Of a DNA stretch of 64,000 bases, positions 5,496 to 56,500 are shown one piece after another. The notes below the pieces were generated by a model. That model saw only the letters and a program-made list of their open reading frames with translations. It was not told the DNA's origin and ran no database searches. Position 1 is the stretch's first letter, and each line of letters starts with the position of its first letter. A program made the translations under genes and the position numbers. Source of the stretch: an uncultured bacterium (lineage in GTDB: Bacteria > Acidobacteriota > Thermoanaerobaculia > Multivoradales > J023); contig CBDUGP010000024.1 in the NCBI GenBank assembly GCA_965366625.1, positions 3,767 to 67,766 of the forward strand. The letters are read 5' to 3'.

Positions 5496-5871
5496 CCGTT
5501 CAATGTTGCGGTCCTTTTCTCTCGTAGGCTCCCTCTGGGGGTGCTAACTAAAGATTTGAAGAGAGACACGGCGGCAAGTAAATGGCATGTTTCGCGACCT
5601 TTCGCAACCTTAGTAGCCTGTGGCAAAAGTCTCACCGCGCTGCGAGCGCGCCTTTTCCGCCGAATCTTTGTTGGAAAACCTCGACGATTCTCGAATCGCC
5701 TGCGGTTGTCACGCCTCGACTCGGCGAAAAATTCGCAGCTCTTGCCGGCGGCAGACTTCTGCCACAGGCTGTTGGCCGACCGATGAAAAAGACCCTTTTA
5801 AGATACCACGGTCGTTCGCCAGTCCTTGGGCCGAATCTCTCGTCTCTGTCCCCTGGCTTCTACCCTCCGTC

Positions 5872-7233: not shown

Positions 7234-7243
7234 CCCGTTCCTT

Positions 7244-8107: not shown

Positions 8108-8161
8108 GTTTTTCTCCTAGGCAGAGGTTCATTTTCGATCAGTTGGCAATCAGAGGCCGGG

Positions 8162-36517: not shown

Positions 36518-39040
36518 CTAGGGGTAGTAGCCGCGAATCGACCGGGTGCGCAGGCCCGGTCGGTCGACCTCCACGTCGATGCGTCTGAAGGTGCCTCGGC
36601 CTTTGCCTTCTGGAGCCGGATACACCAACAGATATTGGGAGCGTAGGTCCTGCTCGATTTGGTCGTAGACCCGGTCGAGTTCGGACACCGAGCGAATCGA
36701 AAAGGCGCGTCCGCCGCTCGATTGGGCCAATCCGCCCAGCTGATCGCGGGTGGCTTCGTCGGCGACGGACAAGAGGATGGGGTAGACCGCCACCCCTGCC
36801 TTCAGCACCTGATCCATGGCGGGTTCGAACTCAAAGTCGCTTTCCACGTCCTTGCCGTCCGAGAGCAGGACCAACGCGCGACGGCCGGTTCGTCCGCCAA
36901 AATAACCGGCGGTGTACACCAACGTGTCGTGCAGTCGGGTGCCTCCCCAGGGCACCAAACCGCTGGAGCCCAGGCGCAAGGGGTTGATCTGGTCGGTGAA
37001 CGGCACCGCCAGTCGAATGTCGTGATTAAAGGTGACCAACGCGGCTCGATCTTTGGGCGTGAGCACGGTCTCAAAAAAGCGTCGAGCGCTGTCGACCGCA
37101 AAGCTGAGCCTTTCGCGCATGGAAACCGACGTGTCCATGGCCAACACCACCTGGATCGGCAGATCCGACACGGTGGAAAAGCGGGCCGGTTCCTGGGGCT
37201 CGCGATCTTCGAAAATTCGGAAGTTTTCGGACTTGAGGCCCACCACCGGACGCCCCGTCGAATCTTCCACGGTGGTGAAGACCTCCACCCACCGAACGTT
37301 GGTGGATTCGAGAGGTTGAGAGCCGACCGAGATGAACGCCTCCGCTCGATCGCCGCCGGCGAGTTCGGCCACGGCGCGAACGAATTTGGCGTTGGGTGAG
37401 AGGGGATTCGGCAGCCCGGCGCGAAAGGGCGGTTGGTCGAAATAACCGAGCAGCAAACCATCCAGATAGAGTTCCACCCGCTTGAGCGTCTCGCCCTTCG
37501 GCACGTGAACCTTGGCCACGGCTTCCACCGCGGTCTGCAAGCGTTGGCCGGCGGTGAGTTGGCCCTTCTCAGGCGAAGTCAGCCGGACTGAAAAGGGCGG
37601 CTCGGCCGGGTCGAGCCGGATCTCATCCCGCGCCAGCTCCTCGCCGTCGGGTGAGAAAGCGATCGCGGTGACCTGGTGCAGGGCGGGTGTGTCACCGAGA
37701 TCCACCACAGTCTGGAACGGCGCCTCCCCATCACTGCCCGCCGGCTCGCCGTCGAGCTTGAAGTCGACCCGTGCGATCGGTCCACCGTGGGTCACGGTTT
37801 CGATGTCCACCCGTCCTGCGAGGCTCTCCCCGGGTGGAACCAGCTCCACGCTGGGGAAGGTCAATAGGCTGACGATTTGTCGTTTGGTGAGTTCGGTCAT
37901 CTTGCGCTTGCCGGCGTCGCTCAGCTCATCTTTCGATTCCGGCACCCGTAAGGTTAAGTCTCGGCGCATCAAGGCCAGGCCGTGATCGTCCTCGAGCCGC
38001 AAACGCATGAGGTATTTGGCGGGCCGCAAACGACGATAAAAGTCCAATCGCACGTTGTCCGTTTTAGGGGCTTCACCGGCCAGGTGGTAAACAATTTCAA
38101 ACCGATCAGTCACGTGGCGTCCCAGCAGGACCTCACCGGACAATACGAAGCGATCGAAGAGCTGGCCGGCGTCACCCCGGCGGATGGCTTGCACCGGCAC
38201 CTCCACGCGACCCAACACCACAGTCTTGCGCCCGTCCCGGCCCGGAAACCCTACGGCCACGTGGTCCGTGGGTAGCTTCAAGCGGCGCTCGCTCAGCTCC
38301 TGATTGAACGTTTCCAACCAACCGGGATCCGGCGCCGCGCGCTCCACCCATCCGTCCACGGTGGTTTGTCCAATGGCGTGAGTCAACGCCGAACGTAAGG
38401 TTTTAGCTTCGTCCTCACCGGTCCGAAAGCATTTCCGCTCGCGCGAATATTGAATCACCTGCTCGATCGTGCGTCGGCTGAACGGCGCATCATGCTCCGA
38501 CAACGCACCAATACCGTCCTCAGGGCTCCACTGGCCAAATTGACCGTCGCGCGCGCCATAATCGCGAGTGAACACCAAATAAAACCCCTCGCGCTGCTCA
38601 CCCGCCAGCTCCGTCGCCTGCCATCGGTTGTACCACCAAATCCGCAACGGCCGAATCACCCCCCGGCATCCACCGTAAACGAAAATCCGATCCGGCACCC
38701 CCGCCGTCAAAAACGCCTGCGCCCGATCCCCCGAAAGCTGCTCAAAACGTCGCCGAACCTCCGAAAACCGAGCCCCCCACCGAGCCGCCGGCCCAGAATC
38801 CCCAACCCCATCCCCACCTTCACCGCCTCGACCCCGAGCCCGCCAAAACGCCCGAATAAAAAGCTCCCGATCCACATCCGACCCCAACCCCTCAAACCCC
38901 AACACCTCCGCCTCCAACATCAACGGCCGAGCCGCCGTCAACCACTCGTCATAAAAGCGGTCGATACGAGGCCCCTCCGGCTCGGCCAGCAGGGTTGGGG
39001 TGAGGAGGAGAAGGAGCAGGAAGAGTGCAGGGTGTCGCAT
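36518..39040 (-). CDS. Secreted large protein with a C-terminal-half vWA domain
   Basis: Signal peptide 'MRHPALFLLLLLLTPTLLA'. The vWA MIDAS-like segment 'VVLAMDTSVSMRE...ALVLLSDGKD'. Its 5' end abuts the islet's left repeat. Confidence 0.7.
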   Translation of the reverse strand: MRHPALFLLLLLLTPTLLAEPEGPRIDRFYDEWLTAARPLMLEAEVLGFEGLGSDVDRELFIRAFWRARGRGGEGGDGVGDSGPAARWGARFSEVRRRFEQLSGDRAQAFLTAGVPDRIFVYGGCRGVIRPLRIWWYNRWQATELAGEQREGFYLVFTRDYGARDGQFGQWSPEDGIGALSEHDAPFSRRTIEQVIQYSRERKCFRTGEDEAKTLRSALTHAIGQTTVDGWVERAAPDPGWLETFNQELSERRLKLPTDHVAVGFPGRDGRKTVVLGRVEVPVQAIRRGDAGQLFDRFVLSGEVLLGRHVTDRFEIVYHLAGEAPKTDNVRLDFYRRLRPAKYLMRLRLEDDHGLALMRRDLTLRVPESKDELSDAGKRKMTELTKRQIVSLLTFPSVELVPPGESLAGRVDIETVTHGGPIARVDFKLDGEPAGSDGEAPFQTVVDLGDTPALHQVTAIAFSPDGEELARDEIRLDPAEPPFSVRLTSPEKGQLTAGQRLQTAVEAVAKVHVPKGETLKRVELYLDGLLLGYFDQPPFRAGLPNPLSPNAKFVRAVAELAGGDRAEAFISVGSQPLESTNVRWVEVFTTVEDSTGRPVVGLKSENFRIFEDREPQEPARFSTVSDLPIQVVLAMDTSVSMRERLSFAVDSARRFFETVLTPKDRAALVTFNHDIRLAVPFTDQINPLRLGSSGLVPWGGTRLHDTLVYTAGYFGGRTGRRALVLLSDGKDVESDFEFEPAMDQVLKAGVAVYPILLSVADEATRDQLGGLAQSSGGRAFSIRSVSELDRVYDQIEQDLRSQYLLVYPAPEGKGRGTFRRIDVEVDRPGLRTRSIRGYYP

Positions 39041-39222
39041 GCCGGAATTCTATGGGGCGGGGGAATGGATAGCGAGGGGAGGTAGCCCTTGGTGGGGGCG
39101 GTTTGTACCCGGAGGGAGGGGATAGCAACTGAATGTTGGCTTCGTTGCAACAACTACGGATAACCGTCTATTAACGCAGTTTTGAGTCGATGTCTTTAGG
39201 TGAATCGATATTGGAGGTGAGG

Positions 39223-40455
39223 ATGAGCGAGATCTTCCAGAGAACGGTGCTGCCACAGACACTTAGAAGGATTTTTGACGATCGGCTCTACGAAAATTCA
39301 GGTCCTATAGAGTTTCTAGAGCTATCTGGATGGGATCATCCGCGTTTAGCAGGTTCTACCATGAGCTTCGAGGTGAGTTTCACAGATTTGGAACTTAGTC
39401 GATATGTTCTGGACTACGAGCAACCGAACATCGAGTTTGAGACAATCAAGAAAAACATCGCAACACATTTATCCCTGCTTGAGCTGGGCACCGAGATAAA
39501 TCATAGGCAAATTCAACTCACCTATGGCGGAACAGGAGCACTGAGTCTGCTTTTGCACTGGGTTAAGTCTAAAGGAATTGAGATGGTTGTCGCTGATCCG
39601 CCATTCTATTTCAGCCTTAAACACTTAACAAAGTATCTCAATCTTGATTTGATTGCAGCAGAAAGAAACATCTTAGGACTCCACGACCCGAAACCTCTCT
39701 TGAGAGTCCTCCAAGAACACAAGGCGATACGAAAGGCTGTCTATATTGCTCACCCCCGGTATGTAGTTGGCGGCGCTTACTCAAAAGGTGAGATAGCAGA
39801 AATACTCGCGTGTCTCAGAAGTGATGATCTGCTAATTGTCGACAACTCTATCAATTTGATGATCGAGCAAGACAGCCTTAGTCTAGGGGACCACTCAACA
39901 GTCGCAGTCGTCAAAACGATTGGCAAGTCAATTAGTATGTATGGGTGTCGGCTTGCAGCCATTGTGACCTCAGAGGCGGTGAGAGCCGAACTCAATACAA
40001 TTTCTGAGTGGTTGTTTGGAGGTTACGATGTTGGGATGCTTAGGGTTGCCCATCAGCTAACAGTAAATCACTATAGATTTAAAGAACGAGTGCTAGCTAC
40101 AAGACAGCTTGTTGACGAGTCGTATAGGAACGTCCTGAGCAAGTTGGCGGCGGAAGTCGTGGCCCTGCCAAAGCCGAATTCTACCTATCTAGGTTATGCA
40201 TTGGTTGATACAGATTCTATCGGGAGATATAGGCTGTATCAATTCTTCCTGAGAAACCGGATAAACGCCATGTTTTCTGAACAGATAGGTCTCGCACGAA
40301 TTGCCGGTTTAGATCTCATAAGGATAAACTACCTTCTTGACATCGATAAAGCTGTCGGTCTCCTATCCGATTTCGCGGCACAGGCCAGAAAGAAAGGCTG
40401 CTTCCGATCTGCCTGGGCTCATACTACTTTGGGAAGAAAGACTCTGTCTCGATAG
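39223..40455 (+). CDS. Divergent PLP-dependent aminotransferase-fold (class I/II-like) protein on the islet
   Basis: Strong RBS GGAGGTGA before the ATG at 39223. Candidate PLP-lysine motif 'TIGKSISMYGCRLAAIV', resembling SxSKxxxxxGxRxG. The usual DEVY-type motif is replaced ('IVDNSINLM'). GC is about 45%. Confidence 0.5.
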   Translation: MSEIFQRTVLPQTLRRIFDDRLYENSGPIEFLELSGWDHPRLAGSTMSFEVSFTDLELSRYVLDYEQPNIEFETIKKNIATHLSLLELGTEINHRQIQLTYGGTGALSLLLHWVKSKGIEMVVADPPFYFSLKHLTKYLNLDLIAAERNILGLHDPKPLLRVLQEHKAIRKAVYIAHPRYVVGGAYSKGEIAEILACLRSDDLLIVDNSINLMIEQDSLSLGDHSTVAVVKTIGKSISMYGCRLAAIVTSEAVRAELNTISEWLFGGYDVGMLRVAHQLTVNHYRFKERVLATRQLVDESYRNVLSKLAAEVVALPKPNSTYLGYALVDTDSIGRYRLYQFFLRNRINAMFSEQIGLARIAGLDLIRINYLLDIDKAVGLLSDFAAQARKKGCFRSAWAHTTLGRKTLSR

Positions 40456-40456
40456 A

Positions 40457-42490
40457 CTATGTCTCAAGTTGAAGATCCGCTGTCAGCTCTCGCGACAAGA
40501 GAATTGGTTCTTCGGATTCATCAGAGCACAACCTCATGGCTGCAACACCCAGCTGAAAACAGTATGGTATTTCACGTCCAGCAGCAATCGCCTTGTAGAA
40601 GCCGGACGAGAAACCGACCGCCCCCTCGTCGGAAAGCCTTGAGCTGACACCGATTACAAACGGAGCATGCTGGCTTATCGATCGCGCTTGGGACTCTGAG
40701 TAGCACGCATTTAACACAATGCAGGTTGCTTGCTGTGGCAGTAACTCCAACAAGCGATTCAGTGTTTCGTTCGAGACTGGTCGAGGGTTGCCTGCAGAGT
40801 CTAGAATCATAATTCCATCTTCGGATCCATGCCCAGAAAAATGAATGATAAAGGGTGAGTGCTCCAATGGGACCAGCAAAAAGGTTTCTTCGTCTACAGC
40901 CCATTCTTGCTCCAAGCTGAGGTCTGCGCCCCGGACTCCCGTTCGAAGGGAGTTCCTTATCATCTTTATTTCGCGTTCAAGCTCCAGCTGTGTGCTGTGG
41001 GGGTTGGCACTTAGAAATAATATTACTTCTTTTGATCCCTTTCGGCTCTTGCCCGATTTGTTAGCGACAAGAGATTTCTTGCTCGCTGCCCTCGGTAGTA
41101 GGCCGATGACCATTCTTCGAATTTCGGCCAGTGTAGAAAAATCCAGGCCTGTAGAAAACTTGATACACGCAATCTTGGGGAAGTTCAGCATGACCAAAAC
41201 GGAATAGTCCACTGTCCTGTTGTCAGACTGCCCAAGCGACTGGTGACCTGCGGTCAAGAGAAGTTTTTGTGTCGAAGATTCGTAGTTAGATATCTCCAAC
41301 CGAAATCTGGCCGACAGGAAAACGGCCATTGCAAAAATCATGTTCATGCTGTCCGGCGAAACTAGGGCAGCTAGTGAGGGGGAGTTTAGTTTGAGAACAG
41401 ATTCGACTTCAACTTCAACTCCACTTCCATCGACTAGAGCTTGAAGTTGCCCCGCTGTTGTTTTTTCCGGGACCAGAATAGAAGCCCGAGCAAGTTCCGT
41501 CTGGTCAATTGAGACAAGGCTGCTGGCCGCAACAAGTAGGTTCTCATAGTATTTGCGCAGCTTTCCTGAACAGAACTCCAAGGTTTCGACGACGGTAGAA
41601 GGGAGTTCCCGACCTGAGGCTGTGTCCAGTAGGGCATGAATCGATAGAAAGAGCCTGGTAAGAAAAAACACCATTATTCGGTTCTGTTGATAGAGAGCCA
41701 CCAAGAACGAAGAGAGATGTCTCAGCCCTGAGAGGATATGTAGGATGTTAGATTCCTCAATCTCCGAGAACCTGAGATTGACGGCATCCACCAATTCTTT
41801 TGAGTGATTGAGATCTTTCTCTAAGAAAGCTGCGGCACTAACAGATTCTAAGATTGTTTTTGGGGAAACTTCATCGATTCGAATGCTCAACCCTGATTCA
41901 GGTCGAATCAGGGTTACATGCTCTAAACTAGATCTTTGAAGGCCGAAGTTCTGAAGCACCGAGGGTTCTTGCAATGTTAATTCAATAAAGCGACATTCAA
42001 GTAAAAGGCAATGCTCCAGCAACTTATTGGAAGTTGTACAATTGCGAAATTCACAACCGAAAAGTTTATCGTTTTTAAACGTAGTTCCAGAGAGATCGCA
42101 ATCCCTGAATTTCACATTTTCAAAATGACAATCTACAAAGACTGTATTCCGCAGGCCAGCGTTGACAAAGTCAACATCTCGAAATGTGCATGAGCTAAGG
42201 AGATTGTCGAAGAAATCACAATAAAAATGAACCGAGTTGAAGAAAGTATCTTTGGCGTCAATTTCACAAAAATCCGCATGAAATTCACCAAATTGGACTC
42301 TGCAGGAAATCAGGTTCGGCTCAAATGCGGAGCTTCCCCTGGGAATCGTTCCGCCTAGAAAACACTCAAAGAGTTCGTGAGCTACAATTGGACTATCAAG
42401 CAAACTAAGGTCGATACTGGCGCCTCTCACTATACCGCCTGGGATGTTGCCCTTAAGGTTGCGTGCGGCATGGTCGAGCTTCTTCATCAT
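40457..42490 (-). CDS. Pentapeptide-repeat + CHAT (caspase-like) protease domain protein on the islet
   Basis: N-terminal pentapeptide repeats ('FRDVDFVNAGLRNTVFVDCHFENVKFRDCDLSGTTFKNDKLFGCEFRNC'). C-terminal caspase-like His/Cys dyad ('IIHFSGHG' ... 'CIVLNACYSESQ'). Low GC. Confidence 0.65.
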   Translation of the reverse strand: MMKKLDHAARNLKGNIPGGIVRGASIDLSLLDSPIVAHELFECFLGGTIPRGSSAFEPNLISCRVQFGEFHADFCEIDAKDTFFNSVHFYCDFFDNLLSSCTFRDVDFVNAGLRNTVFVDCHFENVKFRDCDLSGTTFKNDKLFGCEFRNCTTSNKLLEHCLLLECRFIELTLQEPSVLQNFGLQRSSLEHVTLIRPESGLSIRIDEVSPKTILESVSAAAFLEKDLNHSKELVDAVNLRFSEIEESNILHILSGLRHLSSFLVALYQQNRIMVFFLTRLFLSIHALLDTASGRELPSTVVETLEFCSGKLRKYYENLLVAASSLVSIDQTELARASILVPEKTTAGQLQALVDGSGVEVEVESVLKLNSPSLAALVSPDSMNMIFAMAVFLSARFRLEISNYESSTQKLLLTAGHQSLGQSDNRTVDYSVLVMLNFPKIACIKFSTGLDFSTLAEIRRMVIGLLPRAASKKSLVANKSGKSRKGSKEVILFLSANPHSTQLELEREIKMIRNSLRTGVRGADLSLEQEWAVDEETFLLVPLEHSPFIIHFSGHGSEDGIMILDSAGNPRPVSNETLNRLLELLPQQATCIVLNACYSESQARSISQHAPFVIGVSSRLSDEGAVGFSSGFYKAIAAGREIPYCFQLGVAAMRLCSDESEEPILLSRELTADLQLET

Positions 42491-42559
42491 ATCAATAATA
42501 GACGGTTATCCGTAGTTTGCAGAATTTTCTCGGAATTCTGGAGCTGAAACCTGGCTTAA

Positions 42560-43501
42560 TCAACAAGAGGTCAACGAAAAATTCGGGTGAAACTGCTGCA
42601 ATTTCGCGGCTAGGCCTTCTTTCGACACGTGTAGGTACCTTTGTGTGGTGGCGATGGATCGATGGCCTAGGAATTCTTGGACGATTCGGATGTCGGCGCC
42701 TTGGTCGAGCAGCATGGTCGCGATGGTGTGTCGGAGCATGTGGGGGGTGACTCGCTGCGCGATGCCGGCTTCTTCGGCGATGCGTCGGATCGAGTTGGCG
42801 ACGCCTTGGGTGGAGAGCGGGCGTCCGAAGACGTTGACGAAGAGGTGGTTGTGGTCGGTGGTCAATTTGATGCGTTCTTGACGATAGCTTTCCACGGCTT
42901 GGCGTGAGCGAGGGTCGGTGAGTAGGGCCACTCGTTGTTGGCCGCCTTTGCCGTGGATCAAGAATTCGTGGAGTTCGGGCTGGTAGTCGCTCAGGCGTAG
43001 TGCGGTGAGTTCGCCGACTCGAATGCCGGTGGCGAAGAGCAGCTCGATGACCGTCCAATCTCTGAGATCGAGAAAGCCGCGATGCAGGCGGGTCGGCACG
43101 GGTTGCTCGAAGGTCGTGACGCGCGACCGTGCTTGTTGCAGCAGTTTTTGGATGTCCGGCAGGTTTAAGCATCTCGGTAGTTGTTTTTGGTGCTGTAGAT
43201 CCAAGCGGATCCGCCAAAGTGGCGAAGCGTCTAAAACTCCCTTTCTGACCCAATATCCAAAGAAGACCCGAAGCGCTGCGAACTTACGGCGAATCGAGCT
43301 GGGTGCGTATTCCTCGAGTCGCAGGAAATCTGCCCATGCTTCCAGCTGGTCCGGCTGAACTTCGGTCACCTCTTGTGTCGGTTTCAAGAACCGATAGAAT
43401 TGTAGCAGATCGATCCGATATGCGCGCTGGGTTCTATGGCTTCGGCGACATGTCGAGAAGTACCCCTCGTGGAATTTTTCGATGGCGATGTCTAGCAGCA
43501 T
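42560..43501 (-). CDS. Tyrosine site-specific recombinase (XerC/XerD-like integrase)
   Basis: 'HMLRHTIATMLLDQGADIRIVQEFLGHRSIATTQRYLHV' with the catalytic R...HxxR...Y. 313 aa. Confidence 0.9.
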   Translation of the reverse strand: MLLDIAIEKFHEGYFSTCRRSHRTQRAYRIDLLQFYRFLKPTQEVTEVQPDQLEAWADFLRLEEYAPSSIRRKFAALRVFFGYWVRKGVLDASPLWRIRLDLQHQKQLPRCLNLPDIQKLLQQARSRVTTFEQPVPTRLHRGFLDLRDWTVIELLFATGIRVGELTALRLSDYQPELHEFLIHGKGGQQRVALLTDPRSRQAVESYRQERIKLTTDHNHLFVNVFGRPLSTQGVANSIRRIAEEAGIAQRVTPHMLRHTIATMLLDQGADIRIVQEFLGHRSIATTQRYLHVSKEGLAAKLQQFHPNFSLTSC

Positions 43502-43788
43502 CTCTTGCTCCTCACGCTCCCGGCTGCGCCAATCGTAGCTTTGGGTCGTTTAGTCGATTGATTTAGTTCTATTTAGGCGAGAATTTTCTGCATTGGCGAG
43601 AAAAGCATAGCAGCCGGTGGCGCGGGATCGCCGGCTCCTGGGGGCCCCGAAGAATGCCCAAACCGTCAACGAGCCTCCGAGAATCGGGCTTCCAAGAAGC
43701 CTCGGGTCTTGCATCTCAAAACGGATCCCCGGTTCCTCGATGGTGTCGACTTCGACCGTGTCGACGTAGAGCGTGCCGAAATGTTCGA

Positions 43789-43925
43789 CTAACGAGCTTC
43801 CGACCACATCCGAACCCAACCCTCCAGCGCCCCGATCTCCACCTTCAACTCGAGGTCGAGTTGGGTTAGCCACTCGTCATTGAAGCGATCGATACGGGGT
43901 CCCTCGGGCTCGGATCCACACCTGT
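43789..43925 (-). pseudogene. Remnant of a duplicated 5' end of the vWA gene (right-hand att-like repeat)
   Basis: It encodes '...EPEGPRIDRFNDEWLTQLDLELKVEIGALEGW', homologous to residues ~20-60 of the 36518..39040 product. The signal peptide is missing. Confidence 0.55.
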
Positions 43926-44572
43926 GCAGGGTTATTGCCAAGCGCATTAAACGTTGGCACAAACGATAGACAAATACCTTCCAAGGTGCATGAAAATATT
44001 TAGTTATACAAAGACGCTGATCTTTGCGAGGTGGCCATTTTTCCGCGTAGAAGCTGGCGATTGCGGGGCCACCAGCCTGTGGATTGGGCGGGGATTGGAG
44101 GCAAAACCAAACTCTCTGCTTATCCTTGCGGCATGGGTTTTGCTTCCTGTAGGGTGGGAACATTGGAGACCTGATTAACATCAGGTAACATCCGTCTCCA
44201 TCCCGTCGGGGAATGTCGCCAACCGAGGAAAAATGACCAGCCTGGAATTTTTTACCTGGAATGATCGAGTTCAACTATCGCTACCCGAGGAGATCTGAAG
44301 ATCCCATGGCATCTCAAATTGATACGAAGAAACCCAACCGAAGCTCAGTGCCGTCCTCCCAGGGCTCGAATTGGAAGAGACCCTATTCCAAGCCACGGAT
44401 TCTTTTCACAGAAACTATTGAAGCTATGGCGACCAGCTGTCTGACACCGGGCGGAAAAACCGATCCGATCCAGTGCCCATCGGGTCCCCTTCAAAGTTGA
44501 TGGAACTCGCGGTTCACATCCGAGAATGCTAGTCCATCAAGCAATCCCCCCGCTTCAAGGAAGAACAAGCCC

Positions 44573-47500
44573 ATGAGACGTTTTTTGAGCCCATCCCAGG
44601 TCGGAATGCTCCCCGGACACCTCAGTGTCGTTTTCTTTTTCTGGCTCCTCGTCTTGGGCTCCGTCCCCGGAACGGCTCAGCTCCGGCAGACGTTCTTCGT
44701 GCCTCTGGATGAAACCCATGTTCGGGACATCGGTTTCGCCATTACTTCCGCTGCGGGTGATACGACCCATGCTGTGATCTCGTTGTCGGCCACGGCGAAC
44801 GGAACCACGGTCTATTACGATCATTGGGAGGACGGCTACGAAGCCGACCTGGAAAATCCGGTCCAGGCTTCGACCGAGACTTTCCTGCTCGACGCCGGCG
44901 GATTCGTCGCCCTTGAAGACGATATCGACGTCAATCCTCGGGATCCCTTGATTATCGAATATGACGGCCGAGACAAGATCGGGGCGACCGAGCAAATCGC
45001 GGTCACCCGGGCCGGCTGGCGTCTTGCGGAATCCACTTTGTTGGCCGGCGCCATCGAGGTTTTCCCGGTCATTGATTGGGGACAATTCTTCGAGTTTCCC
45101 CTCGGCGAGGACATTGTTTCGAGCCAAACCTTCGAATATGTTGCTGCGTCGATCATGGCCGGCGAAACCGGTGCCATCTTCGATATCGACAGCGACGGTG
45201 ACGGCACGGTGGACTCCACCATCACCCTCCTGCCGGGTGAGACGACCCTGGTCACCGGAATCAACACCGGAGGCACGATCGCTTCGTCCGACCCCCTGCA
45301 GGTCAAGCTGCTCACCGGTGATTTGGGCAGCACCTTCGCATCCCGATGGTACGACTTGGTGTCCACGGAGATTTGGGGCTCGAGCTACTACAGCCCTGTT
45401 TCATCGGTGCCCACATCCGAGAACCGGATCTTTCTCTACAACCCGGGCTCCTCGTCGATCACCGTCACCCACGAGACGATCAGCGCAACGGTGACCACAC
45501 GCACCTACGACAACACCACCGCCGGCACGCTCGATGAAACCGTGGCGCCTTGCGGCGCACCGATGGTTCGCACCTTTACGGTGCCAGACACCTTTACCGT
45601 CAATGCCGCTCGGCTCGGCTTCAACGCCACCCATACCTATCGCGGTGACATCCAAGTCACATTGATCTCTCCCGGCGGCACGAGCCGGACCGTGATCGCT
45701 GCCAATGGTGGCGACGGAGACGATAACTATGACGTCTTGCTCGACGGCACCTCAGCCAACCCCCTCGACGACGGCAATGCCGACACGACCGCTGCGCCTT
45801 TTTATGATCGATCCGCGCTGAGTCTCATCGACTTTCCCGGCGAAGCCGCGAATGGTGTCTGGACGTTACAGATTTGCGATTCCTTTGGCGGTGATGCCGG
45901 TACGTTCAACAGAGCCCAACTGCAGCTTGACGAAGCCACGGGTACGACCATCAATACCGGTACTGTGGCAGTGGCAGCGAGCGGCATCACTGAATTCTCG
46001 GTGCCCCTGAACTCGGCGGCCCATTTCTTCACCGCCACGGGCGAGACTTTTTTCGCCACCGCGGCGGTCGATTGGAACGACACCAGCTCCGATTGGGGTT
46101 TCACCCTGCTGCCGGAAGAAGCTCTGGCAACCACTATCGTCACCGGCTGGGCTCCGGGACGCGACCCCGCATCGGGCGTCAATCCGACTGAGAATGGGAG
46201 CCCAATTTGGGTCACAGCCACCGGCGCGACCGATCTTTATGTGGACTACGACGGCGATCCGTCCACCGGCGCTTTGGTGGACTCCAACGGCAATCGCTAC
46301 GACGAACTCGTAGCCATCACCGAGCTGGAATCCGTCAGGCTCTTTGATCCCAACGATACGGACCAGAATCGTGTTCGGGTCTACACCCTGGACCAGACCT
46401 TGATCGCCGCGGCGTGGGGGCAAGACGCGGTCAACGCCAGCGCCGCAGCCCCGGCCATTGATGTTGGCACCACGGTGGTTCCCTTGGACGCCCTGAGGGC
46501 GCTGAAAGAAGGCAGCCTGCTCAACGATGCGGATGGCGACGGTGCCTTAGGTCCGGGCGACACCATGCGCTACACCATCGTCATCAGCAATGTTTCTGAA
46601 GCGGTGGTGACCGGCGCCACGGTAGAAGACTTTGGGCTCGATTCAAATCTGACCTATGTGGCCGATTCCACGGAAATCGACGGCCTCGCCATTGCCGACG
46701 ACGCCATCGGCGTCACGATCTTTCCCCTCGATGAAGGTGGCCAGCCGCTTTCCACCATCGGCATCGGCGAATCCGTCACCGTCACCTTCGCGGTCCAAAT
46801 CGCCGATCCCCTGCCCGTTGGGGTCGAAAGTCTGTTGAATCAAGTCCGCGTTTCCACTTCGACCCAAATCGAGGTCGGCTCAACCCTGACGACGATTCTT
46901 GCCCCCGCTCTGTCGATCACCAAGACCTCGAATGTGGTCGGCGATGTGGTGGCGGGTCAGACCATCGAGTACACGGTCACGGTCAATAACATTTCCGCGG
47001 GTCCTGCCCGGGGCATCAAGATTCTCGACACCCTGCCCGCGGGAACGACCTACAACGCCGAATCCACCGTGGCAACCGGATTTTCGGACGTTTTCTTAGG
47101 CACGGAGACGGTTACCGATGAGCCGGCCGGCGGTATTGCCTTCGACTCCGGATCCAATCCATGCGGCGGCACGCCGGTCACCCGGACCTTTACGGTGGCC
47201 AATTCCTTTACCGTGTCCGACGTGGATCTCGGCTTCAATGCGGATCACACTTACCGCGGCGATATTCAGGCGGTGCTCGAATCACCCGCCGGAACCCGCA
47301 TCACCGTCTTGACCGGTATTGCAGACCCTGACAACAACTACGACATCGTGTTGGACGACGAATCCGTCAACCCACTGGACGACGGAACTCCGGATAATAC
47401 CGCTGCCCCCTTCTACGATCGCGACGTGATACCCAATAACGCCTTGTCCGGCTTCGACGGCGAAACCTCGGTCGGCACCTGGACCCTCGAGATCTGTGAT

Positions 47501-50500
47501 GACGCCGGGGGCGATAGCGGCACCTACAACCGGGCGCAGCTGCGCGTTTCCGGCTCCAATTCCGCCGCGCAGTCCCGTACCAACCAGGCAGCGGCGATTA
47601 ATCCGCTGCTCGATGGCGATCCCACCAACCTGGTGTTGGCACCGGACGGCTTTGGCCTGCTTCCCGGCCAGGTCATGACCACCACCTACCAAGTGACGGT
47701 GGAAGATCCTTTGGCCTTCAGCACCACGGCGATCACCAATACGGCCCGGGTCACCAGCCTGGAGCAGCCCGAACCGCTGACCGCTACGGTGGTCGATCCG
47801 GTGACCGAAGGGGCGGCCATCGGGGATCGAGTTTGGCTCGATGCCGACGGCGACGGTTTCCAAGATGTCGGTGAGACCGGCATCGCCAATGTCACGGTAA
47901 ATCTCTACGATCCGGGCGGTGACGGTGCTCCGGGTGGGGGCGACGACACCCTGATCGGCTCGGTGACCACCGACCTCAACGGCATTTACCTCTTCGACCA
48001 TCTGCCGGCCGGCTCGTACTTCGTCGATGTCGATGGCGCCACCCTTCCACTGGGGCTGACGACCTCACCGGGCACCACGGATCCGAGTTCGGTGATCACC
48101 GTGACGGCAGAGGAAATCCGCCTCGACATCGACTTCGGTTATACCAACGCCGACGGTGGGACCGCGATCGTCGGTGATCGGGTGTGGTCCGACTTCGACG
48201 GCGACGGCATCCAGGATCCCGGCGAGCCGGGCATCGGCGGGGCGACTGTCGAGCTGCTCGACGACACCGGCAGTGTGGTGACCACCGTGATCACCTCCGA
48301 CGATGGCGCTTACCTCTTTACCGGCGTGGCTCCAGGGGAATACCAAGTCCGGATCGCGGCCAGTAACTTCTCAGGCGGCAACGCCCTCGACGGTTATACC
48401 GTCACCACCGGGCCCCAAAGCGAAGGCGCCAATACCAGTGATCCCGTGACCTTGCTCGCCGGCGACGTGCAAACCGACGTCGATTTCGGCTACCAGAACG
48501 TGGCGTCGACCTATTCCATTACCGACGCGGTTTGGCTCGATGTGGACAGCGACGGCGCTTTCGATCCCTCGGAGTCCGGCATTGCCGGCACGACCGTCGA
48601 TCTGCTCGACGCTTCCGGTGATGTGATCGCCACCACCCTCGTGGCCGCCGACGGCTCGTTCTCCTTTGATGGCGTGGAGCCCGGTAGCTACACGGTTTCG
48701 ATCAGCGACAACAGCGGCAAGCTGATCGGCTTGGCCGGCACCACCAGCGCGGGAACGGCTCGCCAACTGGCGGTGACCGTGGTCGCGGCCGATGTCACCG
48801 GCCAAAACTTCGGCTACAACGGCGAGGCCTTGTTGGGAGACCGCATCTGGTCCGACGCCGATGGCGACGGGGTGCAAGACGAAAACGAGGTCGGCCTAGC
48901 GGGTGTGACCGTTGAGCTTCTAGACCGGCTCGGCGCGGTGATTGACACCACCACCACCGACGCCTTTGGCGACTACCTCTTCGACGGCATCTCACCGAAT
49001 CAATACACCGTGCGGGTCGACGCAACGTCGCTGCCGGCGGGCTTCACCCAGACCGGTGATCCGGACGGCACCCTGGACCACCAATCGGCGAGTGTGTTGA
49101 CCATTGGCGATGCGGATTTGGTGCTCGATTTCGGCTATCGGAACACGTCGCTGGCGGACATTTCCGGCAATGTGTTCTCCGATTTCGACCGCGACGGCAT
49201 CGACGACGGCGTGGGCGAGCCCGGTTTCACCGGGGTGTCGTTAGCCCTGCTCGACAGCTCAGGCAACGTGGTCGCCACGGTCAAGACCGACGCCAACGGG
49301 GATTACACCTTTGCCGACCTGCCGGCAGGCAATTACACCGTACAAGTGACCGACGATAGCGGTGTTCTGGCCAACCACGAACTCACCAGTGGTCTCGATT
49401 CCGTGCCCGTGACTCTGGCCGGTACCGACATCACCGATATCGATTTCGGTTACGCCCGTAATTCCGGCACCGGCGCCATCGGAGACTATGTTTGGCTCGA
49501 CGCCGACCGAGACGGCGTCCAAGACGCCGGTGAGAGCGGCCTGTCGGGGGTCGATGTCGACCTCTACGACGTCGGTCCCGACGGCGCGGTCGGCGGCGGT
49601 GACGATGTGCTGATCGCCTCGACCACCACTGACGCCAACGGTGGTTACATCTTCACCGGCATCGCCCCGGGCGCCTACTACGCCGATGTGGACGGCACCA
49701 CCGTTCCCGCCGGCTTGGCGACCACCAGCGGTACCACCGTTCCGTCCGGCATCGTTTTGCTTTCCGAAGGTGAGCTGATCGACGACCTGGACTTCGGTTA
49801 CGGCGGCACCCCCGGCTCGAGCGCCATCGGCGATCGAGTTTGGGCCGACGTCGATGGCGACGGTATCCAAGATCCCGGTGAGATCGGCATCGGTGGCGTG
49901 ACGATCACCGTGGTCGGTCCGTCCGGCACGTTCACCACGACCACGGCCGAAGACGGCTCCTGGCTGGTGACCAGCCTGGCACCCGGCACCTACACCGTGA
50001 CCGTGGATTCCTCGACGTTGGCGAGCGCCTACGACACGGCGCCGACCAACGGACCCGCAAGCCGGGAGTATGAGGTCACCTCGTCCGCCGACGTGCTGAC
50101 CGCCGATTTCGGCTTCGACGGCGCGATCCTCGGCTCCATCGGTGATCTCGTGTTCCTCGACGAAGACGGTGACGGCTCTCAGGGAGTCGGTGAAGCCGGC
50201 ATCGCTGGAGTCACGGTCGACCTGCTGGACTCGGGCGGCAACTTGGTGGCAACCACCACCACGGACGAAAACGGTGCCTACGACTTCATGGGCCTGCCGG
50301 CTGGTGACTACCAAGTCCGGGTGAGTGACGTCGGCCAGGTGCTGACCGGGCTCAACCTGTCCTCGGGCAGCAATCCCACGGCGACGATCAATTTGGCTGC
50401 CGGTCAGGACTATGACGACGCCGACTTCCCCTATGCGCCGTCCTCAGGCTCCGGCAGCATCGGCTCGATCGTATGGAACGACCAGAACGGCGACGGGGAT

Positions 50501-53500
50501 CGGGACGCGGGGGAGCCGGGGCTCGAAGGCGTGACGCTGGCCCTGTGGCACGACATCAACGGCAACGGTGTGATCGAGCCGGGAACCGACAATCTGTTGC
50601 GCTCGACCACCACGGATGAGAACGGCGAATACGAATTCGTCGGACTCTTGCCCGCGGATTACCTGGTCGACGTCACCGATACTTCGGGCGTGCTCACCGG
50701 TTTCACGAAAACCGCCGGCGCCGCCGGGGTCAATGACAATAGCCAAGCAGATCCCTACGCCGTCACGCTGACCACCGGCAGCCCGAGTGACGACACCGCG
50801 GACTTCGGCTACCAAGCCACCACCCCGCGCGCCATCTCGGGCACGGTCTTTGGCGACGACAATTCGGACGCGAGTCAAAACGGTGGGGAAGCGGGAGTCT
50901 CCGGCGTGCCCGTGATCCTCTACTTGGATCTCGACGGTGACGGCGTGATCGATCCCGAAGATCCGCAGATCGCCTCCACCACCAGCGACGGCAGCGGTGA
51001 CTATGCATTCACCGGTCTGCCCGACGGTCGCGACTACATCGTGGCCGTGGAAACCACGGATACGGCCGTCGCGGGTGAGACCCAGACGACCCAAACCGGC
51101 ACCGCCGGCGTGCAACCGGTGACCCTCTCCGGCGCCGACTCCACAGGCAACGATTTCGGCTTTGTGGACTCGGCTCCCGAAGTGGTGAATCCGGCGGTGA
51201 TCGGCGACCGCGTGTGGCTCGACACCGACGGCGACGGCATCCAAGACGTGGGCGAGCCGGGCATTCCGAACGTGGATCTCGAAATCTACGATGTCGGTCT
51301 CGACGGCGTCCCGGGCGGCGGAGACGACGTGCTGGTGGCGACCACGACCACCGGCGCTAACGGCTCCTACAGCTTCGGCGGCCTCGACGCCGGCACTTAC
51401 TTTGTGGACGTGGTCGGAGCGAGCGTGCCGACGGGTCTCAGCACTTCGCCCGGCACCAGCGACCCGAGTTCCGCGGTGACCGTTGCCCTCGGTGATGTGA
51501 TCGATACCGTGGACTTCGGCTACACCACCACCGCCGACGCGGTGGTCGGCAACTACGTGTGGTCCGACGCCGACAATGACGGCCAGCAGGATCCCGGTGA
51601 ATCGGGCATCGGCGGAGTGACCGTCGATTTGCTGTCCGCCGGCCCTGATGGTGTGTTCGGCACCGGTGACGACGTGGTCGAAGCCACCACCACGACCACC
51701 GACGACGGTTGGTATCTCTTCACCGGCGTTACCGCCGGCGAATACCGTGTCGACGTCACGGACACGGGCACGGTGCTCACCGGCTACAGCCTGTCCACCG
51801 GCCCGCAATCTTCCACCGATCCCACGGATCCGTTTACGGTCGCGGCCGGCGACGTCTTCCACGACGCTGATTTCGGCTATCGGAATCCGGGACTCTTCGA
51901 CATCTCCGACCGCCTGTGGCAAGACATCGACGGCGACGGTACCCAGGATCTGGGGGAGTCCGGCCTCGCCGGAGTGACGATCAACTTGCTCGACGATTCC
52001 GGCGATGTGATCGCCACCACTGTCACCGACGCCGCCGGCGATTTCACCTTCCCCGATCTGCCCGACGGCAGCTACACCCTGTCGGTGTCCGACACCGGCG
52101 CCGTGTTGCGGGAATTCGTCGGCACCACGCCCCCGGCCACCGCCGACGCCTTGGCGGTGGTGTTGGCCGGCGCCGACGTTGCGGCGGTGAGCTTCGGTTA
52201 TAACCAACCGGGCATCGTCGGCGACACGGTCTTCTCCGACAGTGACGGTGACGACGTGCAAGACCCCGGCGAGCTGGGCCTCGGCGGAGTGACCGTCGCC
52301 CTTTGGCAGGACGCCGACGGCAACGGCATCTTCGATTCCACCGTCGATACCTTCGTCGGCAACCAAGTCACAGCCGCCGACGGCAGCTACCTCTTCGAAG
52401 GCTTGGGGCAAGGAACGTTCTTCGCCTCGGTCGATCCCAGCCAACCGGCTCTGACCGGTTATTCGGCGACCACTCCCGACCAGGAGGGTGGAGCGAATGC
52501 GGCCGGAGTGCAGGTGGAAGCCACGCTGGCCAATTCCGCGGCGAGCTACTTAGCCGCCGACTTCGGATTCCAAAACACCGCGTTGCCCGACGTGTCCGGC
52601 AACGTTTTTGAAGATCTCGATCGCGACGGCGTCGACGATGGCGCCGGCGAAGCCGGTTTTGCCGGAGTCACCGTGGAGCTGCGCAACGCTTCCGGCACCG
52701 TGGTCGCCACGGCCATCACCGACTCCAGCGGCGACTACACCTTCCCCGACGTCCCCGCCGGCAATTACACCGTGGCGGTGACCGACGGGCATGGCGTGCT
52801 CGACGGATATCTGCTCACCAGCAGCCTCGACGAGGTGCCGGTGGCCGTGGCCGCTTCCGACATCACCGGCATCGACTTCGGTTACGCCCGCGACGCTTCC
52901 ACCGGCTCGATCGGCGATCGGGTGTGGCTCGACAGCGACGGGGACGGTATCCAAGACGGTGCTGAGACCGGTCTCGGCGGTGTGACCGTGGAGCTTTACG
53001 ATCCGGGTCCGGACGGTGCGGTGGGGGGCGGTGACGACGTGCTCGTCGATACCGCGACCACCGACTCCAACGGCAACTATGTCTTCCCGGGGCTCGGTGC
53101 GGCCACCTACTACGCCCAGCTCGATACCTCGACTTTGCCGAATGGCGGCAGTGGTTTGGTGACCACGACCGCGGATCCCACGGCGATCATCGCCCTATCC
53201 GAAGGTGAGAATTACCGCCAAGCCGACTTCGGCATTACCAGCGGACCCACCACCGGCGCGATCGGTGATCGGCTGTGGTTCGATGCCGACGGCGACGGCT
53301 TGCAGGATCCGGGTGAGACGGGAATCGGCGGGGTCGAGGTGGTGCTGACGGGACCCGGTTGTGCGCCGTGTACCGCCACCACCAACGCTGACGGTACGTA
53401 CCTATTTACCGGCCTTGCGGCCGGCGACTACAAAGTGAACTTCAATCCGGCGACCCTGCCGGCGATCTACGATCCCAATCCGACCAACACCACCGGCAAC

Positions 53501-56500
53501 ATCGACGTCGACGGTTTGGCCGGCGGGGATCTGGTCACCAACGCGGACTTCGGCTTCACCGCCGCCGGCGCGGTGGGCTCGATCGGCGATCTGGTCTTCC
53601 TCGACCTCGACGGCGATGGCGTGTTGGACGCCGGCGAGCCGGGCATCGAAGGGGTGACCGTCGACTTGTTGGATGCCGCGGGCACCACGGTCTTGGCCTC
53701 CACGACGACCGACGCCGACGGCAATTACAGCTTCCTCGGTCTCGATGCCGGCACCTTCCAGGTGCGGGTCACCGATACTGCGAGCGTGCTCGTCGGGCTG
53801 AATCTTTCGTCGGGCTCCAATCCCACCGGCGCCATTGGTTTGGCCGCAGGTCAAAACTACGTCAACGCCGACTTTGGTTACGCGCCGTCCGGCGGCACGG
53901 GCTCGATCGGCAATTTGGTATGGCACGACGTCAACGGTGACGGCGATCGCGATGCCGGCGAGTCGGGCATGCAGGGCGTGACTCTGGAGCTGTGGAGCGA
54001 TACCAACGGCAACGGGGTGATCGAACCCGGCATCGACAATTTGGTGCGCACCACCACCACCGACATCAACGGCGAATACGTCTTCAACGGCCTGCCCGAC
54101 GGCGATTACCTGGTGGACGTGACCGACGAGGTCGGCGTGCTCAACGGTTTCACCAAAACCTCGGGCACAGCGGACACGAACAACAACAGCCAAGCCGATC
54201 CTTATGCGGTCACTGTCGGCGGTGGCAGCGTCGAAACCGCCGACTTCGGTTATCAAGCCGGCACCAACTTCGACATCCTCGGCACCGCCTTCTTCGATGT
54301 CGACGGCAACGGCATCGAGGATCCGGTGGACTTCGGGGTCGAAGAGGTGGAGGTCTACCTCTACATCGACTTGGACGGCGACGGCGTGATCGATCCGGAA
54401 GATCCCCGGATCGGCACGACCACCGTAGATTCCAACGGCAACTATCTCTTTGAGGACTTGCCGGACGGCGATTACGTCGTGTCGGTCGACGCCGGCGGCA
54501 CGTTTGTCGACGGTGGGCTGCAAACCACTCAAACCCTGACCAATAGCGTCGAGCCGGTCGTTTTGTCCGGTGCCGACTCGGTGGACAATGATTTCGGATT
54601 CAATCGTCAGGCGACTTTGGCCCTGGTCACCGATTTGAAGGCGTGGTCCTCTGGCGCGGGCACCGTGCTCGAATGGCAAACCGTCGCCGAGGCCGGCACC
54701 GCCGGCTTCCGGGTTTACCGAATCGAAGGTCGACAACCGATTTTGGCCAGCGAGTTCGTGCTGTCGCCGGCCGCGCCCCAGGGCTCGCGTTATCGCGTTA
54801 CCCTTGCCGGCGCCCAAGGTCTCGAGCTGCGGGTATTGTTGGAAGAGCTCGAACGCTCCGGTGTGTCGCGCCTTTACGGTCCGTTCCAGGTGGCGATCGA
54901 AGGTTCTGAGCCGTCCGGCTCCCGTTCGGTCACCAAGACCGGCGAACTCCAAGGACGAGGTTTCGAAGCCGCGCCTTTGGCTCCGGACGCTCGACGGGTC
55001 CAAGCCGGCAAGTCCGCCATCGTTCCGAGCTCGAAGGTGGCCGGCGACCGGCTGCGGGTGATCGTCGATCACGACGACCTCTACGTGATTCCCACGGCCA
55101 CCATCGCCGATGGCCTCGGTCTCGACTTCGGCGAAACCCGCCGGGCCATTGATCAGGCTGGGTTGCGACTGACGCGGGCGGCGGAGACGGAGGTCTCCTA
55201 TCTGCCGGTGGACGAGGGCTTGGCCTTCGTCGGCAGGGCCCTTCGAGACCAGGTCTACACCGACAGGGAAGTCTATTGGCTGGAGATCGGCCCGGGCCGA
55301 CACATGGCTGAAATCGCTGCCGACTCGGCCACGCCTGCGGCTGACGGTAGCCTGCGTCATCACGGTCACTTCGAAGAAGATGTGTTTGCGGCCACCTTCG
55401 TGGCCAGGGACCCGAATCTCGATTATTGGCATTGGCGCGGCTTGATCGCCGGTCACGGCACCTATGGTGTGACCGACTTTTCGCTGGCCTTGCCGGAGCT
55501 GGTTCCGGCTACCGACGCCACGCTCACGGTCCACTTCCGCGGTGCGGGTTATACCGCCGTACCCCAGGAGCATCACGCTCGGTTGAGCCTCGACGGCCAG
55601 CTGGTCGGCGAGACCTATTTCGATGATCTCAACGATCACAGCGCCACTTTTGAGCTGGCTGCGGGTGTTTTGACCGACGGAGCCACCCTGCGGGTTGAAG
55701 CTTTGTTGGACACCGGCGCGCCGAGCAGCTTCTTCTATGTCGACTCCTACGAGCTCGACTTCGAGCATCGCACCCGGGCTTCGGACGAGCGCTTCGAGGG
55801 CAGCTTTGGCGACACGGCGGAGGTCACGGTGGAGGGCTTCAGCGCTTCCGACCTGTTGGTGCTCGACACCACGGATCCAGAAGATCCGGCGAAGATCCAA
55901 AACGCTTGGATCGATGCCAATCGTTCGACGGTGTGGGCCACTTTCGGGCGCCCGGTAGGAGCCCAATCGTTCCGAGTCCAGAGCCTGGCCTCGGCGGCCA
56001 CGCCGGAGGTGATCCCGAGCTTCCGGTCGACCCTATTGGATCGATCCAACGCCGGGGCCTACCTGGTGATCGCTCCGGAAAGGCTCATGCAACCGGCCCA
56101 GCGATTGGCGGATCTGCGCCTCGCGGACTTCGGTTCCAGCCGAGCGGTATCGCTGCAAGAGATCATGGACGAGCTGGCGGGCGGACGATTCCACCCGCCG
56201 GCCATCGGTGACTTCTTGGCCTACGCCAAGGCCGAGTGGTCCGTGCCACCCACCCACGTGGCGCTGTTGGGACGAGGCAGCTTCGACTATCGAGATCTTC
56301 AAGGGCAAGCGGCCGATCCGCTACCGCCGTTGATGACCAGCACGCCTTACGGCCTCTACTCCTCGGACGGCGGCTACGCCGATGTCGACGGAGACGGTCG
56401 TCCCGATGTGGCTTTGGGCCGCATCCCGGCGGCCACGGCCGAAGAAGCGGACGCCTACATCGATCAAGTGATCGCTTACGAAGCCTCCTTCGGCTTGTGG

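Follow-up and report, generated by a model that had tools for sequence, protein, structure and literature searches.

The islet and its inverted sites

The DNA analysed here (the window) is a stretch of 64,000 nt from contig CBDUGP010000024.1 of assembly GCA_965366625.1, which derives from an uncultured bacterium (Acidobacteriota; Thermoanaerobaculia; Multivoradales; J023). It contains an islet of low guanine-plus-cytosine (GC) content that lies between a gene encoding a vWA-domain protein and a gene encoding an Xer-like tyrosine recombinase (Table 1). The islet, or cassette, consists of two convergent genes: geneA, encoding a pyridoxal phosphate (PLP)-dependent enzyme, and geneB, encoding a pentapeptide-repeat protein with a CHAT-type C-terminus. 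An earlier note on this DNA, made from the letters alone, had placed a drop in GC at about 39.1-42.5 kb, and this was confirmed: the GC fraction is 0.464 in 39174-42495, compared to about 0.62 in the flanks overall, 0.626 on the vWA side and 0.606 in the whole window. The recombinase gene (0.565) and the stretch at 43502-44572 (0.535) are intermediate.

A perfect 22-bp inverted repeat, AACTACGGATAACCGTCTATTA, which the earlier note does not mention, borders the low-GC segment exactly. In 100 shuffles of the sequence we obtained no match to this repeat, even when three mismatches were allowed. Both copies have a dif-like form, GATAA-N7-TTAT, in which short palindromic arms (GATAA, TTATC) surround an asymmetric centre of 7 nt. 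On the recombinase side, the outer edge of the repeat (IR-R) is 42 bp from the recombinase stop codon, while the ATG of geneB is 4 nt past the TTAT of the site and 5 nt past the 22-bp repeat. On the vWA side (IR-L), geneA has two start candidates, one at 39190 (15 nt past the TTAA of the site) and the other at 39223 (preceded by GGAGGTGA).

When tyrosine recombinases act on sites with identical asymmetric central regions in inverted orientation, the outcome is inversion only, not excision or integration. We propose that the Xer-like recombinase pairs the two inverted sites of the window and that intramolecular recombination would flip the 3.3-kb segment between them. A flip rather than excision is predicted because the 7-bp centre is asymmetric and the two copies are inverted.

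Table 1. Features of the locus, with positions in the window (+ and -, strand;., none assigned).
Feature	Position	Strand	Description
vWA gene	36518-39040	-	840 aa, acidobact_VWFA; conserved, flanking the cassette on the side away from the recombinase
Direct repeat copy 1, within the functional vWA 5' end	38729-38985	.	blastn against 43645-43913
Spacer from vWA start codon to IR-L	39041-39151	.	homology to sister strains (L148, L150) only as far as 39117-39122
Unit varying among sister strains	39118-42570	.	the cassette with its two inverted sites and the two spacers, plus the final ~10 nt of the recombinase gene
IR-L, vWA-side recombination site	39152-39173	+	AACTACGG-ATAA-CCGTCTA-TTA (outer arm, central 7-mer, start of inner arm)
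geneA, PLP-dependent class I/II aminotransferase-fold enzyme	39190-40455	+	PF00155
geneB, pentapeptide beta-helix, helical middle and CHAT-type C-terminal domain	40457-42490	-	Pfam
IR-R, recombinase-side recombination site	42496-42517	-	reverse complement of IR-L
Strain-specific spacer from IR-R to recombinase stop codon	42518-42559	.	entirely divergent from sister strains
Xer-like tyrosine recombinase, putative cassette invertase	42560-43501	-	PF00589
vWA 5'-end remnant, decaying (direct repeat copy 2)	43645-43948	-	blastn to vWA 5' end

Inversion and alternative cargo in related genomes

The relatives with which the locus was compared are metagenome contigs and metagenome-assembled genomes (MAGs). 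Orientation was called from the assemblies, and junction-spanning contigs of independent samples and assemblers agree. In the closest relatives, the sister strains, the recombinase is 99% and the vWA protein 97% identical to that of the window. Eight sister contigs (L002-L009) match the window at 98.5% from a giant gene beyond the recombinase through the vWA remnant and the recombinase gene to 42570, which is 10 nt before the recombinase stop codon, and diverge fully from that point. At 36 nt past the recombinase stop they carry a site of their own, GGATAA-CTAGAAA-TTATCGCAT, directly after which they diverge into two continuations.

Sister contigs covering the vWA side were recovered via the vWA protein cluster. 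Two of them (L148 and L149) contain the partner site, inverted, about 130 nt upstream of the vWA gene. A block composed of the site, a GT2 gene, a DegT gene and an IS66 fragment (2,962 bp) is 100% identical between L005 and L148, where it is reversed. The site-GT2-DegT block adjoins the recombinase in L005 and L009 and adjoins the vWA gene, in the opposite orientation, in L148 and L149, with the junction exactly at the 22-bp site. The segment between recombinase and vWA gene in these strains is at least 9 kb long and occurs in both orientations, the first represented by L002, L003, L004, L007 and L008 together with L148 and L149, the second by L005 and L009.

The idea that L002 and L005 hold unrelated cargos was rejected, as L148 showed them to be the two ends of one invertible segment. 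Their sole mutual similarity is an inverted IS66-related stretch of 266 bp (84% identity), and remnants of IS66-family transposases lie inside this large segment (L005 4185-4830; L148 1-650; L002 13910-14170).

A similar result was obtained for a more distant recombinase, P0104 (51% identical to that of the window), which is encoded in identical form by seven contigs. When L144 was compared with L142, the recombinase-side flank was 100% identical while the 2.2-kb segment between the sites was reversed at 99.95% identity, the overlap being the 21-nt repeat. Contig L146 contains both junction types, and the sequences of L145 and L147 start precisely with the inverted repeat; L140 and L141, which encode recombinase P0113, also start at the repeat. 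Both orientations, with breakpoints at the repeats, were found in nature for the sister-strain locus and for the P0104 system, where the segment is inverted from one sample to another.

The sister strains also differ from the window, and from each other, in what lies between the sites. One contig, L150, covers the whole locus: the giant gene, the remnant open reading frame (ORF), the recombinase gene, a 31-bp inverted repeat, a low-GC cassette of 6.3 kb, the partner repeat and the vWA gene. In its cassette, genes for CHAT-AAA_16 and CHAP proteins converge on genes for an ATP-grasp enzyme and a protein of 479 aa. On the vWA side L148 and L150 are homologous to the window only as far as 39117-39122, and on the recombinase side sister identity ends at 42564-42570. 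The remnant, the recombinase gene and the vWA gene are therefore a shared platform for at least three alternative units of the form spacer-site-cassette-site-spacer, among them 39118-42570. The comparisons support the view that the segment is foreign and strain-specific. We also considered an outer att-like site at the boundaries of the variable unit; this was rejected since the junctions were neither sharp nor common to the variants.

Comparison with the sister strains bears directly on a different explanation, that of the earlier note, in which the islet is an integrative element inserted in the 5' end of the vWA gene, with direct repeats of about 120-270 bp as attL and attR and a replacement 5' end supplied by the element. 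The vWA gene itself is well supported, its product scoring 167.9 bits against TIGR03436 (cutoff 81) with further matches to VWA_2 and VWA, and it is 97% identical in L148, L149 and L150. The imperfect direct repeats, given as about 120 bp in the earlier note, are statistically real and longer than it stated: by blastn, 43750-43913 aligns with 38818-38985 at 74% identity across 169 bp (E 4e-20), a second piece aligns 43645-43686 with 38729-38770 (42 bp), and at the protein level EPEGPRIDRFNDEWLT aligns with EPEGPRIDRFYDEWLT (E 2e-7). The recombinase gene lies between these repeats and beside one of them, the whole of 39.1-44.5 kb is lower in GC than the flanks, and the order of remnant, recombinase, cassette and intact vWA gene on one strand is what a Campbell-type insertion would be expected to leave.

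On the other hand, the longest exact match between the direct repeats is 11 nt, so that there is no identical att core; they are only 74% identical, and the strain-variable segment lies inside them. The remnant and the recombinase gene are kept at 98.5% in sister strains with three different cargos, and the remnant is present in L002-L006, L008, L009 and L150 whatever the cargo. The sites tied to the recombinase family are the inverted GATAA-N7-TTAT sequences, and no vWA homologue occurs within about 10 kb of related recombinases at other loci. The direct repeats are thus not the ends of the islet, because remnant, recombinase and vWA gene form a platform shared across cargos with the variable unit inside it; the structural ends of the cargo are the inverted sites. 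We consider insertion of the present islet as an integrative element unlikely. At best such an insertion would be an old founding event of the platform, and the direct repeats may be the trace of an earlier event by which the recombinase platform came to lie in the vWA 5' region. Remnant and recombinase were present in every sister contig recovered, and no relative without the platform was found among them. A tRNA-type integration target was excluded, as the window has no tRNA genes; Rfam models gave no match in 36-46 kb. These results illustrate how a low-GC islet beside an integrase gene can be misread as an integrative element.

The remnant is an intact ORF of 93 aa in the sister strains. 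In the window it has indels of -1 and +1 about 85 nt apart (compensating frameshifts), which suggests that the window copy is free of coding constraint.

The recombinase family and its cassettes

The earlier note had recognised a XerC/D-like tyrosine recombinase next to the islet, and the assignment was upheld by a match to Phage_integrase (PF00589, 3.1e-38). The catalytic residues R161, K185, H254, R257, H280 and Y289 are invariant in an alignment of 18 sequences. The protein scored 230.1 bits against the XerC model (cutoff 335.15) and 223 against the XerD model (cutoff 329.6), below the level of canonical XerC or XerD. The integron-integrase model TIGR02249 matched in two fragments at 100.9 (cutoff 265). 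Members of the subfamily share the N-terminal motif GYFSTCxRSxxT. A canonical dif site is a single 28-bp sequence (11-6-11) at the replication terminus; here we found inverted pairs around cargo, with a 7-nt centre. The recombinase belongs to a distinct Xer-like subfamily and most likely acts on the two inverted GATAA-N7-TTAT sites, and a functional tie between the recombinase and the islet, as the earlier note had assumed, is supported.

A genome scan recovered more than 534 relatives of the recombinase, mostly from Acidobacteriota. Viral contigs yielded one close relative only (45% identity); therefore the family is not typically phage-borne. We took the 80 best recombinase-relative loci as a survey set and searched them for inverted repeats with exact seeds. 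In 19 of the 80 loci there was a perfect inverted pair of 16-27 nt containing GATAA-N7-TTATC, one arm of which was no more than 250 nt away from the recombinase gene (downstream of the stop codon in 6, upstream of the start in 13) and the partner arm 1.7-5.5 kb away. The arrangement of the window, an inverted repeat around a segment with a site-specific recombinase gene adjacent, is in this way recurrent. No direct-repeat pair containing the site motif was found in the 80 loci, the only direct repeats being chance 13-16-mers and one CRISPR array.

The central 7-mer varies among genomes (CTAGAGA, CAGGAGA, CTTCGGA, CTGAGAA and others) and is always the same in both arms of one genome, which is what recombination between partner sites requires. 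Most segments are lower in GC than their flanks, and most hold two convergent genes whose start codons are placed at -3 to +20 nt relative to the repeat's inner edge; in four loci (L013, L019, L029 and L050) the ATG itself is part of the repeat. Outside the window the central 7-mer follows a purine-rich pattern, C-T-N-R-G-A-A, located 6-10 nt ahead of a start codon, where it resembles a ribosome-binding site.

Could the inverted repeats be unrelated to the recombinase? Terminal inverted repeats of about 20 bp around cargo are typical of non-autonomous transposons, and TGCA occurs near both outer edges. However, there is no transposase and no clean target-site duplication, the Xer-type core with its palindromic arms and asymmetric centre recurs beside homologous recombinases in the 19 other loci, and the inversion breakpoints fall exactly at the repeat. 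A chance match is equally hard to maintain, the number expected from the shuffles being zero (0/100). Transposon termini or a chance match are therefore highly improbable.

The cargo of the family is diverse. Recurring pairs include a protein family of no assigned function (c0) with an FAD monooxygenase or a lycopene-cyclase-like protein, c0 with a UbiA prenyltransferase, and a pair of unknowns that in one locus lies beside a lycopene-cyclase-domain gene. Other cargos are a STAND NTPase with serine hydroxymethyltransferase (SHMT), a methyltransferase with an unknown, GT2 with DegT, CHAT-STAND, CHAP and ATP-grasp proteins. The same pairs occur on either side of the recombinase gene and in both orientations relative to it, as in L031 compared to L058 (proteins 62-63% identical) and in the window and L001 compared to L025 and L021.

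In the window, the earlier description of the cargo as two convergent genes for a PLP-fold protein and a pentapeptide/CHAT protein proved accurate. GeneA matches PF00155 (Aminotran_1_2) at 42.2 bits (cutoff 19.7; 7.8e-11), placing it among class I/II PLP aminotransferases. Its Schiff-base lysine (K235 in the 410-aa form) is invariant across four homologues, and its PDB profile matches are aminotransferases; the NCBIfam models gave no equivalog-level assignment. GeneB has a pentapeptide beta-helix at about aa 20-175, a helical middle and a CHAT-type, caspase-like C-terminus at about aa 482-670 with the motifs HFSGHG and LNACYS, whose His and Cys are invariant in the alignment with its homologue P0002. 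The match of geneB to CHAT (PF12770) is 17.5 bits, below the cutoff of 24. Nevertheless, its C-terminal ~190 aa have 8,570 homologues at E<=1e-10, and relatives exceed the curated CHAT cutoff, so the C-terminus likely belongs to the CHAT domain, with a conserved His/Cys dyad (HFSGHG and LNAC(Y/F)S). An AlphaFold model of geneB built on a 2-sequence alignment had a mean predicted local distance difference test (pLDDT) score of 45, with the beta-helix alone confident. PDB profile searches matched geneB in its pentapeptide part only and gave no match for c0.

The earlier note had not recognised this pair as a described defence system, and our searches agree: geneA, geneB, the recombinase and the vWA protein had no match in PADLOC-DB v2 at E<=0.1, and an NCBIfam HalA match to geneB covered the pentapeptide repeat only (31.5 bits, cutoff 250). 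With the cargos of other cassettes, PADLOC gave only weak chat or caspase domain matches. That the cargo is a defence module is a guess. Both proteins are rare. In a word-indexed search of 5.8 billion proteins, one full-length homologue was found for geneB (P0002, 47%) and one for geneA (P0006, 42%), both from the same sample. Genome and Joint Genome Institute (JGI) metagenome collections scanned with the geneB alignment yielded no relatives, and exact look-ups of the geneA, geneB and vWA products of the window returned no contig on record.

The PLP and pentapeptide pair nonetheless recurs. It was found in four genomes (the window, L001/L010, L025 and L021), always within such cassettes and in both orientations, which answers the question of co-occurrence raised by the earlier note. 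In L001 the order of recombinase homologue (52% identity), site and geneB homologue is that of the window. The site reads ACTACTGATAA-CTGAAAA-TTATCTATT. In L010 this core precedes the geneA homologue by about 60 nt. These four independent occurrences provide a basis for functional tests.

Further CHAT/caspase-like proteins are apparently encoded upstream of the recombinase in L001, at 2-700 and 975-2540. Motifs read by eye are VASHA with LSACETG and AACHG with FACYGAG; no Pfam family was found for the 521-aa protein.

Orientation, expression and known systems

We estimate at about 0.78 the probability that a site-specific inversion module carries the islet as its cargo. The estimate takes in the anatomy of the window, the recurrence of that anatomy in 19 of 80 loci, natural inversion at the sites and three cargo sets on one platform, all of which were directly observed. 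We infer that the window's own cassette may still flip and that its orientation would decide which of the two genes is read from the flank. Flipping would change which gene adjoins a flank that supplies transcription, and the outcome would be alternate expression, a form of bet-hedging. The position of gene starts, abutting or inside the repeats, and the purine-rich centre point to a link with expression. Cassettes and their sites would also be exchanged horizontally between platforms. Programmed inversion by a tyrosine recombinase, combined with cassette exchange, is our best reading of the module.

Several observations weigh against this reading or parts of it. The window's own cassette is represented by one contig in one orientation, with no read-level or second-contig support for flipping, and its 22-mer had no match in JGI metagenomes. 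Its central 7-mer, CCGTCTA, is the sole one of about 22 sites that lacks the C-T-N-R-G-A-A pattern, and this site could be a poor substrate for recombination. A scan of the locus for promoter and terminator consensus sequences gave chance-level results, and no promoter could be assigned. In 61 of the 80 related loci the exact-seed search detected no inverted pair, and the single isolate genome sampled, that of Paludibaculum fermentans (L017), likewise showed none. The conservation of cargo genes as pairs is explained by joint action of the two genes no less well than by either/or expression. Finally, the sister strains have had their sites replaced along with the cargo, with boundaries 35-60 nt outside the inverted repeats. 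This points to cassette exchange in the window lineage by recombination in conserved flanks, not by crossover at the sites, because the sites and 35-60 nt beyond them were replaced together with the cargo.

Another possibility is that the sites serve chiefly for horizontal shuffling of cassettes, as in pdif modules, with inversion as a by-product devoid of a regulatory role and both genes expressed together in either orientation. In Acinetobacter, pdif modules are accessory modules with inverted Xer-type sites and diverse cargo that are shuffled between replicons (PMC6449649, PMC11705084). Several of our data are compatible with this: three cargos share one platform, the same cargo pairs lie upstream or downstream of different recombinases, cassettes are lower in GC than the flanks in most loci, cargo genes are conserved as pairs, and in L142 transcription of co-directional genes upstream could enter the cassette through its distal flank. 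We give this explanation a modest chance of being correct. Exchange by crossover at the sites was not what we saw in the sister strains. Moreover, pdif sites are XerC/XerD sites of 28 bp in which the spacer measures 6 bp, are found on plasmids and rely on host XerCD, whereas the module described here is chromosomal, has a dedicated single recombinase gene beside each cassette, has a 7-bp centre and was directly observed to invert. The start codons inside or abutting the repeat and the purine-rich centre also point to a link with expression, and flipping is frequent enough for polymorphism within one sample.

Returning to the inversion module, its layout as proposed for the window resembles the G segment of phage Mu with Gin (and likewise P1 C with Cin and e14 P with Pin). 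In those systems a segment of about 3 kb is bounded by short inverted sites, contains convergent alternative genes and has the recombinase gene just outside one end, and flipping picks the gene set that is read from outside. Gin, Cin and Pin differ in that they are serine recombinases that need Fis and an enhancer, and that their alternative genes encode paralogous parts of tail fibres, joined to a constant 5' portion that lies beyond the segment. The window has an Xer-like tyrosine recombinase, two complete unrelated genes and exchangeable chromosomal cargo.

Programmed inversions are known mostly from host-associated bacteria, in which they flip promoters or swap parts of one gene. Among the switches that use tyrosine recombinases, fim (FimB/FimE), Clostridioides difficile RecV, the R64 shufflon (Rci) and the hsdS invertons of type I restriction-modification (R-M) systems have, as here, the recombinase gene beside inverted repeats and both orientations coexisting. 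In Ureaplasma, inversion at mba/UU376 alternates the expression of two different genes (for tyrosine-recombinase switches, see PMC3047005, PMC7672463 and PMC9881135). These switches flip promoters or swap segments of a single gene family, whereas here whole two-gene cassettes are flipped, with diverse enzyme or CHAT/STAND cargo. Further, and unlike fim, RecV, Rci, hsdS and the Ureaplasma switches, the site abuts or includes the start codon and the cassette varies among strains on one platform. A published screen for gene-altering inversions (PMC9881135) would miss cassettes of the window type because it required the repeat to be inside a coding sequence.

The module also shares features with integrons, namely a fixed tyrosine-recombinase platform beside variable, apparently promoterless cassettes that differ among strains. 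Integrons, however, have IntI, attC hairpin sites and an array in direct orientation. None of these was found here: the recombinase scored 100.9 against TIGR02249 (cutoff 265), no direct-repeat pair with the site motif was present, and the sites are inverted duplex Xer-type cores. In the window class, in addition, the cassette lies 3' of the recombinase gene. It could be speculated that the module is a chromosomal hybrid of integron and inverton, in which a dedicated recombinase inverts promoterless two-gene cassettes and in the long run contributes to their exchange, while the site doubles as the translation-start region of both genes; we regard this as possible but doubtful. The same caution applies to its extension to the window lineage, where every cassette would combine a CHAT- or STAND-type protein, as known from biological conflict systems, with enzymes that act on small molecules or modify the envelope (the PLP enzyme, GT2 and DegT, or ATP-grasp), and flipping would be bet-hedging between two alternative states, for instance abortive-infection defence versus surface modification.

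Literature searches found no description of this recombinase-cassette family. These invertible cassettes, which occur widely in Acidobacteriota and are seen in both orientations in nature, apparently form an undescribed family. Its recombinase subfamily is common in Acidobacteriota of soil and would flip whole two-gene cassettes of diverse, mostly obscure function, which are also swapped among strains while the platform stays fixed. Should orientation govern expression, the module would be a general chromosomal toggle for accessory functions in an abundant phylum that has been little studied. The short defined site and the single small recombinase make the system a potential tool for inversion and cassette exchange.

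Several further features were observed in the related loci and in the window. In L139 the matched inverted pair is at 5810 and 7738, and a HipA-like toxin gene pair is enclosed by two further sites, at 1260 and 3210, which resemble each other in their flanks and differ in the central 7-mer. This locus may be a multi-cassette array with sites unable to recombine with one another. The unit of recombinase P0113 and its cassette lies beside genes for a relaxase and a TrwB-type coupling protein (L139 13019-15612; L141 3830-4927), with a second integrase in one sample, and some family members may therefore reside on conjugative or mobilisable elements. In L070, a Pyrinomonadaceae MAG, a CRISPR-like array occupies 6756-9780, with some 40 direct repeats of 36-37 nt at intervals of about 73 nt; its end is about 220 nt upstream of a recombinase homologue.

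Between IR-R and the recombinase stop codon, window positions 42520-42540 form a hairpin with a 7-bp stem and a 7-nt loop (CAGAATT-TTCTCGG-AATTCTG); it is without a T-tract and is therefore not a typical intrinsic terminator. The giant gene that borders the recombinase platform (44573-57160) encodes a secreted-type protein of 4195 aa with many SdrD_B/Cna-B-like repeats and P_proprotein domains, and this region is kept at 98.5% in the sister strains. Elsewhere in the window, two neighbouring giant ORFs on the minus strand (14491-20124 and 20281-25872; 1877 and 1863 aa) show identical-looking tblastn matches, separated by exactly 5790 bp, when compared with the Ig-like part of the vWA protein, and appear to be tandem paralogues.

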